Shown piece after piece: positions 15,328-38,660 of a stretch of 64,000 nucleotides of DNA. Each line of letters begins with the position of its first letter. Position 1 is the stretch's first letter. Under the pieces are notes generated by a model that searched no databases, was not told the origin of the DNA, and saw only the letters and a list, made by a program, of their open reading frames with translations. Position numbers and translations under genes: made by a program. Origin of the DNA: Candidatus Spongiihabitans sp. (GTDB taxonomy: Bacteria > Pseudomonadota > Gammaproteobacteria > Arenicellales > Poriferihabitantaceae); NCBI GenBank assembly GCA_965261335.1, contig OZ253450.1, forward strand, positions 506,705-570,704. The letters are read 5' to 3'.

Positions 15328-15368
15328 TTGACATCACGCGGATAAAAAGTGTAAGGTGTCGCGACACC
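15328..15368 (+). promoter_or_regulatory. candidate sigma70 promoter plus 14-bp perfect palindrome upstream of the needle operon
   Basis: TTGACA (15328-15333), an 18-nt spacer, then TAAGGT (15352-15357). This overlaps the palindrome GGTGTCGCGACACC (15355-15368), 26 nt upstream of the sctF ATG. AGGAGA lies at 15382-15387. Confidence 0.3.
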
Positions 15369-15393
15369 AATCACAAATTTAGGAGAATCGGTT

Positions 15394-15618
15394 ATGTCAG
15401 AATTCACACTCGACAATGTAACAAAAGTGCTAGACCCGCAAATCCAAAAGGAAGACACCAAATTGAGGGACATGATGAGTACCGGCAAAGAACTCAGCAC
15501 GGTGGATATGGTCAAGCTACAAATGGAGTCCAATAAATATTATATGACTATTCAATTGGAAAGTGCACTGGCCAAAAACATGAAGGATGCGTTTAGCCAA
15601 ATTGTGCAGAAGATGTAA
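15394..15618 (+). CDS. sctF: type III secretion needle subunit
   Basis: 74-aa two-helix protein with a C-terminus ...ESALAKNMKDAFSQIVQKM like YscF/PrgI/MxiH. It is the first gene of the sctF-I-J-K-L block. Confidence 0.75.
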   Translation: MSEFTLDNVTKVLDPQIQKEDTKLRDMMSTGKELSTVDMVKLQMESNKYYMTIQLESALAKNMKDAFSQIVQKM

Positions 15619-15624
15619 CCACCG

Positions 15625-16020
15625 ATGGAAAATTTAATTTCAAAAGATATTTTGCGTCAGTGTTCGGAACTCGGTTTCGCCGCTAGTCGCTGGTCTGCTT
15701 TGCGTGAATATTCCCTGAGTGTTTTCGAAGCTATCAAGGAAGTTGCTCCAGACAATCCTGCTTGGATTGTTGGCTCGGCAATGGTCTATGCGTGTGCTGA
15801 CGAAAACCCCGATGAAGCACGCAACTTCATGTTAAAACACGGCATATCCAGTAACTCAGGTGACCCTTTGGCGCGTGCCTTCCTAGGGGTTTTTCTGACT
15901 CTCGGGTTGCGCACTGGAGAGGGAGAAGAAGTGTTGCGAAGTGTGGTAGCAGAGGGTAGCAATCCCGAGGCAGTCAACCTAGCTAAGGTAACGCTGGATA
16001 ATATGCATCTAGCCTCTTGA
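15625..16020 (+). CDS. putative needle-subunit co-chaperone (YscG/PscG-like helical repeat protein)
   Basis: 131-aa all-helical ORF directly after sctF, in the yscG position. Sequence similarity was not verified. Confidence 0.35.
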   Translation: MENLISKDILRQCSELGFAASRWSALREYSLSVFEAIKEVAPDNPAWIVGSAMVYACADENPDEARNFMLKHGISSNSGDPLARAFLGVFLTLGLRTGEGEEVLRSVVAEGSNPEAVNLAKVTLDNMHLAS

Positions 16021-16091
16021 TACGTTCGCACAGTTGGGCAGTGCTGTGAGGCAACAAAAAAAGCCTATTATTATGGATTCTGGAGTCGATT

Positions 16092-16538
16092 ATGCCAGTT
16101 GATATGAGTAGTCTGCAACGAATGTTGATGGATCGGTTGCAGGAGCAAATTGCTAGCCCACCAGTACAACAGCAGCAGGCGGATTCGCAGCAAGTCGCCC
16201 AATTTCAGAATGAGTTAGGAGCAGACGCAGGCACAAAGAATGCGGGTGCTACGCAGCCAGTGGCGGCCGGAGACGGCAACAATGCAGTCAATTTGCAAAC
16301 CGTGCAGAGTCAGGCATTAACGCCTGGCGATAGAATTCTGGCCAATATGTCTTCACCCAGTGCCAACGGCATCGATGCCCGACAGATAACGCCGGTCGCC
16401 AACATTGCTGGAGACGGTGTCAGCGGTCTCGTACATGCCCAGATGGCAATGAATGAAGCCACATTGAATTCCAGCATAGGCGTTAATTCGCTCAGTAGCA
16501 CGTCTCAGGGTTTTGAAAGCCTGTTGAAATCGTCATAA
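16092..16538 (+). CDS. sctI: putative inner rod protein
   Basis: 148 aa, located between the needle and sctJ genes. Q-rich N-terminus and a C-terminal amphipathic stretch ...AQMAMNEATLNSSIGVNSLSSTSQGFESLLKSS, reminiscent of YscI/PrgJ tails. Confidence 0.5.
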   Translation: MPVDMSSLQRMLMDRLQEQIASPPVQQQQADSQQVAQFQNELGADAGTKNAGATQPVAAGDGNNAVNLQTVQSQALTPGDRILANMSSPSANGIDARQITPVANIAGDGVSGLVHAQMAMNEATLNSSIGVNSLSSTSQGFESLLKSS

Positions 16539-36121: not shown

Positions 36122-36189
36122 TGTTTTAATTCAAATTGGTCTCGTTTGTAGAATTATGTTTTGCCTGTCCCCTATCTCACTGCACTGGG

Positions 36190-37608
36190 TCAGATGCTCT
36201 GATTTATCTGTAATGTTACTTCGTCGCTTTTAGAGATGGTTGACATGACCGCGTTCTGTGCATTCTCCAACTGCTCAATCATATTCCGTATTCGGCGCAG
36301 ATCATCTTCGTCCTGAGCCTGCATTTTCGCTAGCATTGCTTTATCCCGCATGGCACCAGCACGCGCCTTAGTCGCTTCGTAGCTCTTGGTTGCGCTACCG
36401 ATGGATAACCCTCCGGTCGCCATTTCGGTTGTGCCTCGAGCCACGCTTACACCACTTCTTACTTTGTCCACGACTTGCAGGACACGGCTACTACTCGTAC
36501 CTAGTTTTTCTGCTACGATTTTGACGGCGGCGGTGGGTGCCTTAGTGGCTGTATTCTCCGCGACATCTGTGGTCGTTTCTACCGCACCTTCGGTCACCTT
36601 TGTGCTGGTTTCTACGGTTGCCTCGGTGGTTGTCTTTGCTATGGCCTCGGTTGCCGTTGTGCTGGCTTCTGCGGCTGTCTCTGTTGCCGCCTCTGCTATG
36701 ACCCCGGTTGCCTCGCTACTGACTTCTGCGGCTGTCTCTGTTGCCGCCTCTGCTATGACCCCGGTTGCCTCGCTACTGACTTCCATCGCGGACTCTGCTG
36801 CCTGTGTAGCGGTTTCCACAGCTGCCTCAGCTATGCTGGTGCTGGCTTCGGTGGCAGCCTCTGCGACGGTAGCTCCCGCTTCTGCTGCTACTTCACCAGC
36901 TGTGGCGACAACTTCGGTCGTCGCTTCCGCCGCTTCCGCCGCGACACCGACTGCAGAAGCCCCTCCGCTGGCGACCACGGCAACGATATTGACCACTAGC
37001 ATTAGCGCGGTGATGCCTAAAGAAAGCCCCATCTTAGCCTTGTCATCCATGCCCATGGCATCCATTGCCTTTTCCATTCCGCCACTCTGTTGGGCTATCA
37101 GCAAAGCGGCACTCATTGCGGCAATCATGAGCAGGGGGGCGGCGGCGGCACCACCCGAAACGACCCCGATAACCCCTGCAACGATAAAGCTCAGCCCAAC
37201 ACCAACCCAAGCAAAGACCTTGGCGGCAATCCCCCCCGCCTTGCTTTTTTTGTTCTGGGCAACTTTCTGCAACTTCGATACCATTTCCTTATTCTTTAAC
37301 TCCTTGTCAACGGAACGATCATGAATGCGCTGTTCGGCACTTTCAATGCTGGATTCGGTTTCTTTTTGTCGAAGGCTATACAATACAGCCATCAGATCGG
37401 TGGCGTTCATTTGGGCTGGCACAGGTAACTCAGGGCCACCCGCATTCATATTAGCACTGTATTGATGTCCTGCGGACTCTCTCTTTACCGTCAGATTATC
37501 CGTGGATGTGCCGCGGGTAGTTTTTCCAACATGCTTTGTGCGTGCGGTCTGTTCTGTCGTCGACACATTGACGCTTGGTCTTCCTATATTCAGATCGTTT
37601 TGTGACAT
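36190..37608 (-). CDS. hydrophobic T3SS translocator (YopB/SseC/EspD type)
   Basis: 472 aa. TM hairpin region ...GGIAAKVFAWVGVGLSFIVAGVIGVVSGGAAAAPLLMIAAMSAALLIAQQ... plus MGLSLGITALMLVVNIVAVVASGG, then an A/T/E-rich tract and a C-terminal coiled coil. Flanked by LcrH-type chaperones. Confidence 0.7.
   Translation of the reverse strand: MSQNDLNIGRPSVNVSTTEQTARTKHVGKTTRGTSTDNLTVKRESAGHQYSANMNAGGPELPVPAQMNATDLMAVLYSLRQKETESSIESAEQRIHDRSVDKELKNKEMVSKLQKVAQNKKSKAGGIAAKVFAWVGVGLSFIVAGVIGVVSGGAAAAPLLMIAAMSAALLIAQQSGGMEKAMDAMGMDDKAKMGLSLGITALMLVVNIVAVVASGGASAVGVAAEAAEATTEVVATAGEVAAEAGATVAEAATEASTSIAEAAVETATQAAESAMEVSSEATGVIAEAATETAAEVSSEATGVIAEAATETAAEASTTATEAIAKTTTEATVETSTKVTEGAVETTTDVAENTATKAPTAAVKIVAEKLGTSSSRVLQVVDKVRSGVSVARGTTEMATGGLSIGSATKSYEATKARAGAMRDKAMLAKMQAQDEDDLRRIRNMIEQLENAQNAVMSTISKSDEVTLQINQSI
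36667..36780 (-). repeat. perfect 2 x 57-nt tandem duplication inside the translocator
   Basis: ttctgcggctgtctctgttgccgcctctgctatgaccccggttgcctcgctactgac occurs twice back to back, encoding EVSSEATGVIAEAATETAA twice. Confidence 0.9.
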
Positions 37609-37632
37609 GCTTTTTTCTCGATGGAGGCTCGC

Positions 37633-38136
37633 CTACCCTTCATCCGTAAGGATGGGCTCGCCTGATTGATTCATCTCCTTGATTAACGCCTGCATGGATT
37701 CCGCCCGCTCTTTGAGTGCTGGAGCAATGCGAATCACTTCGTCGACACAGGTGCTAGCTGCATCCTTGTCACCCAAAAACATAAAACAGATGGATAGATT
37801 TAGATACATTTCTGGGTCCGGCTTGTCGCTGTGAATATCCGCATAGCTGAGGGCACTGGCGGCACCAAGATAATCTTGAATCTGTTGCCGGCAATAACCA
37901 AGTCCACACCAGAGCCTCGCCTGCTCGTGATCATAAAAACAAAGCAATTCGAATACTTTGGCAGCCTCCGCATACTTACCCTGTTCATACATCCCGTGAG
38001 CCAGTGCATACAAACCCTCAAAAGATTCGGACGAGATACCGCGCGCTTCCCGCAAGGTGCGCTTGCCATGCAGCACCTCGGCGGTGCCCTCAGTCAGAAT
38101 CTCCGCTAATTGGCGACGTACGGTATCCGTGCCCAT
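37633..38136 (-). CDS. second class II TPR chaperone (LcrH/SycD/SscA family)
   Basis: ...FEGLYALAHGMYEQGKYAEAAKVFELLCFYDHEQARLWCGLGYCRQQIQDYLGAASAL.... Confidence 0.8.
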   Translation of the reverse strand: MGTDTVRRQLAEILTEGTAEVLHGKRTLREARGISSESFEGLYALAHGMYEQGKYAEAAKVFELLCFYDHEQARLWCGLGYCRQQIQDYLGAASALSYADIHSDKPDPEMYLNLSICFMFLGDKDAASTCVDEVIRIAPALKERAESMQALIKEMNQSGEPILTDEG

Positions 38137-38144
38137 AACAGTTT

Positions 38145-38660
38145 CTAGCGACCGAAGGAGGTGAGGATGTCTTTCATAATTTGCTTCCTCTGGGTGACAA
38201 CATTGTTGGCACCCTCGGTTGCATTGGTGGACTTGCCCACCAAGCTTTTTAGCTTAATCATGAAAGTATCGTTATTGGAAGACATCTTGTCTATGTAGGT
38301 GTTCAGGTATTGGATATTGACTCCCCATTGATCCTTGTCGTGCCATGTATCATTACCAGCACGGTCGTAATCAATATTATTACTGTTACAGAATTCCACC
38401 ATGTCTCGTGGCATTCCTGATGTACCATCTCCTGCATCCTGCTTGAGGGCTGTCATTCTCGCCAACATATTTCTGGCTTTGTTAAGGTCATTCAGCTTGC
38501 CTTCTTCCTGCTGAGCACGATCTGTCGCCAGTCCGCTCAGTGTTTCTGCCCGTCGCAGAAACAGCATGGCCATAACATCTTCTATCGACGCACCCTTGCC
38601 GTCAGTGCCCGCAATCTGGCTTATACCGCTGGTACCGCCTACTCCTGATATATCATTCAT
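38145..38660 (-). CDS. secreted T3SS substrate candidate, EspA/SseB-like (filament/sheath or tip-associated)
   Basis: 171 aa with no TM helix. It has terminal helices with a globular middle, as in EspA/SseB. It is the first gene of a B-like/chaperone/translocator trio that mirrors the SPI-2 order sseB-sscA-sseC. Similarity judged by eye only. Confidence 0.35.
   Translation of the reverse strand: MNDISGVGGTSGISQIAGTDGKGASIEDVMAMLFLRRAETLSGLATDRAQQEEGKLNDLNKARNMLARMTALKQDAGDGTSGMPRDMVEFCNSNNIDYDRAGNDTWHDKDQWGVNIQYLNTYIDKMSSNNDTFMIKLKSLVGKSTNATEGANNVVTQRKQIMKDILTSFGR

Follow-up and report, generated by a model that had tools for sequence, protein, structure and literature searches.

An injectisome locus of a Candidatus Spongiihabitans sponge symbiont lacks its export gate and gatekeeper at a mapped deletion junction

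RESULTS

A Ysc-like injectisome locus in a sponge symbiont

We analyzed a stretch of 64,000 nucleotides (nt) from Candidatus Spongiihabitans sp. (OZ253450.1, positions 506,705 to 570,704), here called the window; positions are in window numbering unless another contig is named. At 15394 to 38660, the window encodes a chromosomal Ysc-like injectisome, or type III secretion system (T3SS), in which the genes for the export gate, SctV, and the gatekeeper, SctW, are missing together with adjoining genes that related species keep. The window's SctU is present on a 2,765,189-bp chromosome contig (NCBI/ENA) and on three ENA metagenome contigs. Among named genomes, OZ242212.1 ("MAG: Candidatus Spongiihabitans sp.") has the nearest SctU (89% identical), and Candidatus Oxydemutatoraceae comes next; the host of the locus is a Candidatus Spongiihabitans-like gammaproteobacterial sponge symbiont. 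The literature that we found on Candidatus Spongiihabitans consists of genome-note-level mentions, none of them on its T3SS. Sponge-symbiont genomes of this kind are assembled from PacBio HiFi metagenomes, a data type described in PMC12988363.

We refer to the window's species as W; it is represented by the window, W1 (90 kb, 77x coverage), W2 (1.12 Mb, 507x), and W3 (33 kb, 3x, from a second sample). The related species are A (a 2.92-Mb circular contig at 417x; L091), B (OZ242212.1; L084), C (contigs at 43x, 18x, and 9x; L088), and D (a 2.28-Mb contig; L089/L090). W1, W2, A, and C share one source, sample ERZ26693861.

Genes were called with profile scans, by Pfam and for some proteins also by NCBIfam; every window open reading frame (ORF) of at least 200 amino acids (aa) was scanned. 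The plus-strand part of the locus opens with sctF, encoding the 74-aa needle subunit (15394-15618; PF09392, E = 5.7e-11), and a gene for a 131-aa putative needle co-chaperone of the YscG/CdsG type (15625-16020). The latter has a weak CdsG match (E = 2.6e-3, far under the cut-off), and relatives hold a gene with 89 to 92% identity at the equal position. The putative inner rod gene sctI (16092-16538, 148 aa) is named from its place, with the YscG-like gene on one side and sctJ on the other; it has no family match in Pfam or NCBIfam and is conserved at 67 to 73% in relatives. Then come sctJ (16665-17414; PF01514, 4e-23), sctK (17445-18161; PF06578 YscK, 8e-20), the stator gene sctL (18158-18766; FliH, 3e-8; T3SS_SCTL, 3e-7), a gene for a CesT-type class I chaperone (18768-19205; PF05932, 4e-8), and the ATPase gene sctN (19222-20541; PF00006, 9e-93; T3SS_ATPase_C, 1e-23). 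When SctN was compared with solved protein chains, T3SS ATPases were nearest (525 bits), scoring above EscN, SsaN, and Spa47.

Beyond an inserted restriction-modification cassette, the plus strand continues with sctO (22725-23219; PF07321, 1.7e-19), the ruler gene sctP (23216-24316; HpaP domain, 4e-7), sctQ (24360-25451; FliMN_C, 8e-23), sctR (25482-26135; FliP, 1e-68), sctS (26144-26419; Bac_export_3, 4e-23), sctT (26615-27421; Bac_export_1, 9e-48), and sctU (27418-28458; Bac_export_2, 1.4e-108). The needle-length ruler SctP varies in length: sctP holds 3.8 copies of a 144-bp (48-aa) tandem repeat at 23231-23776, and the protein has 366 aa in the window and W1, 318 aa in W2 and W3, 460 aa in species C, and 216 and 225 aa in species A and B, respectively. 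In one species C strain (L094), sctP is split in two.

The minus strand, read from its upstream end, starts with the gene for a 171-aa coiled-coil protein (38145-38660), a candidate tip or filament subunit called EspA-like from its predicted fold. Sequence searches of Pfam, NCBIfam, and PDB gave no match, and there is none to LcrV. Its model, of modest confidence (predicted local distance difference test [pLDDT] score of 63), consists of two long helices in a coiled coil; when it was compared with PDB folds, the EspA filament 7khw ranked first (E = 0.086; probability, 0.99; template modeling [TM] score, 0.49); on this model, the EspA-like label is plausible. Downstream lie genes for a tetratricopeptide repeat (TPR) class II chaperone of the LcrH/SycD type (37633-38136; TPR_2, TPR_3, and other TPR families), the SseC/YopB-type major translocator SctE (36190-37608; PF04888, 3e-17), a second TPR class II chaperone (35600-36061; TPR families), a CesT-type chaperone (35086-35541; PF05932, 3.6e-21), and a YscE-like needle co-chaperone (34787-35032) whose matches to PF08988 (8e-4) and TIGR02501 (1.3e-3) are each under the curated cut-off. 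The last three are sctC, encoding the secretin (32998-34800; 600 aa as called in public assemblies; Secretin, 6e-31, with Secretin_N and a T3S N0 domain), sctD (31612-32976; Yop-YscD_cpl, 1.6e-14; Y4YQ_C, 2e-13; periplasmic domains), and the gene for an IpgD/SopB-family phosphoinositide-phosphatase effector (28519-31596; 1,025 aa as called in public assemblies; PF05925, 2e-54) with an intact CX5R motif in translation (CKSGKDRTG).

The basal body and needle are thus represented by SctC, SctD, SctJ, and SctF, all with Pfam matches, and by SctI through position and conservation; the export apparatus is represented by SctR, SctS, SctT, and SctU, and the sorting platform and ATPase are represented by SctK, SctQ, SctL, SctN, and SctO. 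An earlier description of the window (the original prediction) had listed these parts, and nearly all are now backed by Pfam; its YscE-like and YscG-like assignments stay below threshold, and its sctI stands on position. It had also stated that every sct ORF present is uninterrupted, which holds for all sct ORFs of the window and for the parts of the locus covered by W1, W2, and W3, where we found no stops or frameshifts (about 17 to 20 kb of sct coding sequence per strain). The genes sctF to sctJ (sctF, the YscG-like gene, sctI, and sctJ) fall outside the loci covered by these three contigs.

The gate and gatekeeper are absent from the window

We searched the window by tblastn with proteins of related loci. 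The SctV (702 aa) of a relative with 72% SctU identity gave no match at an E value of ≤10. From a 91% identical relative (L091, species A), SctV, SctW (409 aa), SycN, SctX, SctY, and the 105-aa protein gave none at an E value of ≤1, and the SctB-like protein gave chance-level matches only (E ≥ 0.05). None of the window ORFs of at least 200 aa is FHIPEP, HrpJ, or AraC-like. With two cognate SctV proteins and the ORF scans in agreement, the earlier claim that SctV and SctW are missing from the window is well founded.

Further parts of a complete Ysc-type system are missing with them. The accessory proteins SctX (YscX), SctY (YscY), and SycN are absent from the window and present in all five sister contigs described below. 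The position of an LcrV-type tip protein, which would go with LcrG, is taken by the 171-aa protein with the EspA-like predicted fold. Of the two translocators, SctE is present, and an SctB-like gene is found only in relatives. We saw neither a pilotin nor an AraC/ExsA-type activator in the window. The window locus is best described as a deletion derivative of an injectisome.

Related species keep a seven-gene block at this site

Five related contigs with 88 to 93% identical SctU hold a full seven-gene block directly upstream of the 171-aa gene: L084 (species B), L085, L088 (C), L089/L090 (D), and L091 (A). The block encodes, in order, an SctB-like protein (265 aa), SctW (about 409 aa), a SycN-like protein, SctX (YscX), an SctY-like protein, SctV (703 to 709 aa), and a protein of about 105 aa. 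The relatives' operon continues with the 171-aa gene and those for a TPR chaperone, SseC, a TPR chaperone, CesT, YscE, SctC, SctD, and IpgD. Their SctV belongs to the FHIPEP family. The SctW of L091 matches TIGR02568 at 1.7e-42 and carries HrpJ and TyeA domains, a YopN-TyeA fusion; SctY has an NCBIfam match at 1.3e-11, and YscX is backed by Pfam. The SycN match (3.9e-9) is under its cut-off, as is that of the 265-aa SctB-like protein to NF038055 (1e-5), a weakly supported assignment.

The original prediction had placed the expected sctW-to-sctV genes upstream of the chaperone and translocator genes, from 38661 onward, and this is exactly where the relatives carry them. It had also noted that a second small translocator was missing, which is explained by the SctB-like gene at the head of the deleted block. 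SctV-keeping sister species occur in the same sponge sample as W.

The deletion junction

Compared with L091, the W locus lacks about 5.9 kb (roughly positions 4005/4020 to 9892 of L091) at a junction at 38812-38821, and this missing DNA is the seven block genes and nothing else. On one side, the window retains intergenic DNA (38661-38812, minus strand) that in relatives separates the stop codon of the 105-aa gene from the start codon of the 171-aa gene; read from 38812 to 38661, it aligns to positions 9893 to 10000 of L091 (species A) and to the corresponding intergenic region of L084 (B). On the other side lies a 30-bp repeat, AAAAGAGGACATTACTGCTTTGGGCTAACA (38821-38850, minus strand), which in SctV-keeping relatives is found about 150 to 165 bp upstream of the SctB-like gene (L091, 3975-4004, in species A; L088, 5470-5503, in species C). 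A short sequence from each side of the block is therefore retained, and the deletion joined DNA about 130 to 150 bp upstream of the SctB-like gene to the final bases of the 105-aa gene. The alignments show that a single deletion of about 5.9 kb took the first seven operon genes in W. Locally, the mapped junction supports the earlier suggestion that the system lost its gate.

The junction is identical in all four W contigs, which come from two samples (HiFi contigs at 507x, 77x, and 3x and the 2.77-Mb chromosome), and all four also share the order ogt-IS5-171-aa gene. A promoter-like motif conserved among W, A, and B, TTGTCG-17 nt-TACGAT, lies at 38803-38775, with the breakpoint 7 to 17 nt upstream; the operon from the 171-aa gene to sctD may have an internal promoter here. 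A promoter and terminator consensus scan at the junction did not flag this motif and gave nothing useful.

The 30-bp repeat AAAAGRGGAYATTACTGCTTTGGGCTAACA has two inverted copies in the window, at 3603-3632 (plus strand) and 38821-38850 (minus strand). They flank about 35 kb that includes the entire island, and the junction abuts one of them. Excision of the block as a cassette between two copies of this repeat was considered and ruled out, as relatives carry one copy beside the block.

Insertion sequences at the island edge

A decayed IS5-family insertion sequence (IS) lies upstream of the junction (38911-40206; DUF772 fragment), about 93% identical to an intact copy at 11688-12944. The intact copy is flanked by the target duplication ATTAT/ATTAT, and the decayed copy is flanked by CAAGT and TCTAT, that is, by no matching target-site duplication; it was therefore involved in a rearrangement through which the island edge came to adjoin ogt-glmS. 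About 90 bp separates the junction from the IS5 end at 38911, with 66 bp of other DNA and the 30-bp element in between, so that the junction does not coincide with an IS terminus. Because the 30-bp element belongs to the ancestral region upstream of the block, the missing DNA does not start at the IS end, and the junction alignment rules out a deletion beginning there. IS activity at the island edge is supported; an IS-mediated origin of the gate deletion is not. Of what the original prediction had reported here, the decayed IS5 copy is real, the supposed ISL3-type terminal repeat is the inverted repeat of the IS5-family element (identical to that of the intact copy), and IS-mediated loss finds no footing in a junction that does not abut the element.

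Each related species has a different left flank at the island; together with the IS5 copy that lacks a matching duplication, this marks the island edge as a recurrent rearrangement point. IS debris is dense in the window, at 2233-3022, 9065-9598, 11258-11611, 13381-15121, 50007-50492, and 59867-60708. It comprises IS5-family fragments, HTH_38-type fragments (probably IS30-like), and one ISL3 transposase fragment (60292-60708), and its density fits a host-restricted genome in flux.

The surviving genes are intact and their variation is mostly synonymous

Over 5223 alignment columns, we counted 373 lineage-unique amino acid changes in W, compared with 403 in A and 361 in B, both of which keep SctV; W gives no sign of long relaxed evolution. 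Among the four deletion-sharing strains, 20 nonsynonymous and 35 synonymous changes segregate in the T3SS genes (pairwise ratio of nonsynonymous to synonymous polymorphism [pN/pS], 0.12 to 0.16), far from the neutral expectation (P = 3e-10). This pattern is indistinguishable from that of the flanking housekeeping genes (22:29; pN/pS, 0.17 to 0.29) and differs from the 16:4 of the restriction gene inserted in the locus (P = 0.001 by Fisher's test). The synonymous-rich pattern includes the export-apparatus genes sctQ, sctT, and sctU.

Derived alleles are scattered over the W strains, with no single sister species having been copied. The strains are mosaic, W3 being identical to the window over 17 kb and to W2 elsewhere. 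The tract from the CesT-type chaperone gene to sctN (18768-20541) has 94 to 98% protein identity to the co-resident species C (L093/L094), compared with only about 72% for sctC and sctD, a contrast that suggests recent recombination among species living in one host. Given the mosaic strains and this tract, recombination is common.

Searches for a gate gene elsewhere in the genome

We searched a collection of 5.8 billion proteins with a cognate SctV; the best 120 homologues were all at least 62% identical. Neither among these nor in the enumerated clusters did any SctV come from the 2,765,189-bp chromosome. The clusters of the SctV clade and of SctW, SctX, SctY, SycN, and the SctB-like protein, as enumerated, have no member on the 2,765,189-bp or the 1,119,645-bp W contig. 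The intact SctV of species A was likewise not among the best 120, the representative of its cluster being a 412-aa fragment encoded on a 3x contig, and for this reason the negative database result is weak evidence; it lowers the odds of a second copy. In ERZ26693861, SctV-bearing contigs were found at 417x, 43x, and 18x, all from sister species with complete loci, and none was seen at about 507x or 77x. A split SctV on a 73.7-kb contig was considered as a case of recurrent gate loss and discarded: the contig has 3x coverage, and the frameshifts are probably sequencing errors.

On contig OX638322.1 (5.18 Mb; L006 and L007), the cluster is present as two paralogous copies, some 30 kb from each other, and two SctV proteins are encoded. 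In one copy, sctK and sctQ are truncated. An extra ORF of 711 to 742 aa lies between yscE and sctC. The label of this contig, Candidatus Binatia, looks doubtful, the cluster being very near the gammaproteobacterial ones.

Composition, restriction-modification cassettes, and other genes of the window

The original prediction had suggested a foreign origin of the island from spot counts of GC content. Computed over coding sequence, the T3SS genes have 49.9% GC (third codon position GC [GC3], 53.0%) versus 47.8% (GC3, 47.5%) in the flanking housekeeping genes, and foreign origin on this ground is rejected: the spot counts had overstated the contrast, and rne has 45.0% GC, not 40%. The value of about 35% given earlier for the inserted restriction-modification gene is correct (cassette GC, 35%; GC3, 26%), and this cassette is the sole clearly foreign piece by composition.

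The cassette consists of an N6/N4 DNA methyltransferase gene (20567-21445, plus strand; PF01555, 8.6e-56; GC, 36%) and a restriction enzyme pseudogene (21432-22592, plus strand) with two in-frame stops, at 21771 and 22410. The restriction gene is intact (386 aa) in W1 (L001) and interrupted by two stop codons in three of four W strains, among which it shows the 16 nonsynonymous and 4 synonymous changes used above for comparison. The sctN-sctO gap is a hot spot of such cassettes. In species B (L004, 5210-5825), it holds a remnant of the window's cassette with an IS5-repeat-type miniature element inside; in species C (L093, 3303-5029), it holds another cassette, with an SfiI-like enzyme and a methyltransferase; and in species A (L092, 5849-5921), it is empty, at 72 bp. 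A second N6/N4 DNA methyltransferase gene lies between glmU and glmS (43203-44018, minus strand), adjoined by an ORF of 165 aa (42716-43213, minus strand) with no family match; this may be a further insertion, of a restriction-modification system or an orphan methylase, here in a housekeeping operon. A candidate giant surface adhesin of 2,303 aa, with ten He_PIG immunoglobulin-like repeats and DUF285, is encoded about 13 kb from the island (51732-58643, plus strand). Scans of the window for Rfam families and tRNAs gave nothing useful.

DISCUSSION

On balance, we lean toward an in situ deletion that turned this locus into a recently disabled injectisome, a system dead yet undecayed. We favor this reading because the deletion is clean and in place, because every relative has single-locus architecture, and because the searches for a second gate gene failed. 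The ancestral state would have been a single operon of the SctB-like gene, sctW, sycN, sctX, sctY, sctV, and the 105-aa and 171-aa genes, followed by a chaperone gene, the SseC-type gene, two chaperone genes, yscE, sctC, sctD, and the IpgD-like gene. Without SctV, SctX, SctY, and SctW, the export apparatus would be unable to engage or translocate substrates, and neither needle, translocator, nor effector would be exported. The surviving genes may still be transcribed, as the junction lies just upstream of the promoter-like motif before the 171-aa gene. On the time scale of gene decay, the loss would be young, later than most of the variation among the strains: it may have spread among recombining strains, or there may have been too little time to break other genes. 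The deletion itself looks like illegitimate recombination at the end of the 30-bp repeat, and the adjacent IS5 copy would mark a separate rearrangement of the island edge and not the cause.

Several observations weigh against this reading. The absence of SctV was read within a window of 64,000 nt on a 2.77-Mb chromosome, and the database search for SctV is demonstrably incomplete, having missed that of species A. Among the strains that share the deletion, T3SS variation is mostly synonymous (20:35), like that of housekeeping genes (22:29) and unlike that of the decaying restriction gene (16:4), and the roughly 17 to 20 kb of sct coding sequence covered per strain is free of stops and frameshifts in all four strains. 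Should the deletion be older than the split between these strains, this intactness and the synonymous bias point to continued selection. Since the remaining sct genes are intact and vary mostly at synonymous sites, the loss must be very recent unless a gate gene lies elsewhere. The original prediction had left open whether the system is split or recently lost its gate; the junction establishes loss at the ancestral site, and of the two alternatives a lost gate is the more probable.

A split system is possible, if less probable than a disabled one: a second sctW-sycN-sctX-sctY-sctV block or a paralogous cluster elsewhere would have made the copy at the ancestral site redundant, and the injectisome would work after its deletion. 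The signature of purifying selection in gateless strains, matching that of housekeeping genes while the dead restriction gene of the same locus evolves differently, is what such a system would leave, as is the lack of any disrupted ORF in the covered parts of the locus in four strains. OX638322.1, with its two paralogous clusters and two SctV proteins, shows that duplication occurs in the clade, and the database search that found no second SctV was not exhaustive. However, all five related contigs that reach far enough hold the block in one contiguous locus, that same nonexhaustive search placed no block-protein cluster member on either large W contig, and the SctV contigs found in ERZ26693861, none near the coverage of W1 or W2, belong to sister species. 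It is decidedly doubtful that there is no gate anywhere and that the roughly 20 remaining genes are under selection for an SctV-independent role, for example as a secretin/ring complex or as effectors and chaperones of another secretion system. The selection signature combined with the failure to find SctV would suit such a role, but sctQ, sctT, and sctU, which have no known function without the gate, share the synonymous-rich pattern, the counts are small, and the strains recombine. We know of no injectisome that assembles or exports without its gate.

As to how the block was lost, removal by the IS5 element, through intramolecular transposition or recombination between two IS copies, is improbable. 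A decayed IS5 copy only 90 bp from the junction, bearing in its unmatched flanks the mark of an IS-associated rearrangement, in a window dense in IS remnants, invites this explanation, but the junction is parted from the inverted repeat by 66 bp and by a 30-bp element that is ancestral in the relatives, and the missing DNA thus does not start at the IS end. Hardly any weight falls on an assembly artifact in which the block was collapsed or dropped: the same junction was found in four contigs that were assembled independently, from two samples and with HiFi coverage reaching 507x, and a sister species in the same assembly keeps the block.

If the in situ deletion disabled the system, nature has provided a knockout of gate and gatekeeper, mapped precisely, in a sponge symbiont that is uncultured. 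Such a knockout gives a clean setting in which to ask whether type III secretion is shed by symbionts once they are established and at what rate the rest of the machine then decays. Barring a spare copy of the gate gene elsewhere in the genome, the machine is probably disabled. In metagenome annotation, a T3SS called "present" from most of its parts would overstate the capacity of this organism. Should it be true that SctV, SctW, SctX, and SctY are absent genome-wide while the rest is under selection, a gate-independent role of a sub-assembly or a novel gate substitute would be implied, and this in the most abundant Spongiihabitans population of the sponge.

By its accessory genes, operon logic, and SctN similarity, the system of this lineage is classed as a Ysc-family injectisome. 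As in the Ysc family (Yersinia Ysc, Pseudomonas Psc, Aeromonas Asc, and Vibrio T3SS1), the relatives carry SctX/YscX, SctY, SycN, and a YopN-TyeA gatekeeper, YscK and YscE/YscG-like co-chaperones are present, and in the relatives the operon from gatekeeper to sctV lies directly upstream of the chaperone and translocator genes. The best named relative of SctV among the best 120 homologues listed is that of Vibrio sagamiensis (62% identity). Unlike the Ysc archetype, the locus has an EspA-like 171-aa coiled-coil protein in place of LcrV, yscE, sctC, and sctD on the translocator operon, and an IpgD/SopB-type effector inside it; in the relatives, an SctB-like gene heads the gatekeeper operon. The window also differs from the archetype in showing neither pilotin nor AraC/ExsA-type activator, and W differs in having lost the seven block genes. 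Dispersed T3SS genes of the chlamydial type would be the analogue if the gate block sat at a second locus; unlike them, every relative examined has a single contiguous locus, and our nonexhaustive search found no second one for the W genome.

Degraded T3SS islands are well known in host-associated bacteria, examples being Escherichia coli T3SS 2 (ETT2) and the T3SS remnants of insect symbionts. The W locus resembles ETT2 and eroded symbiont loci in being a chromosomal island of an IS-rich, host-associated genome, with essential genes deleted and much still readable. Unlike those loci, it shows one mapped seven-gene deletion, with the rest intact, variation mostly synonymous, and complete-locus sisters in the same host sample. 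As a type of event, this is ordinary gene loss in a symbiont. What is new here is the exact loss, seven genes in 5.9 kb, common to the whole sampled species and standing beside gate-bearing sisters in one sponge.

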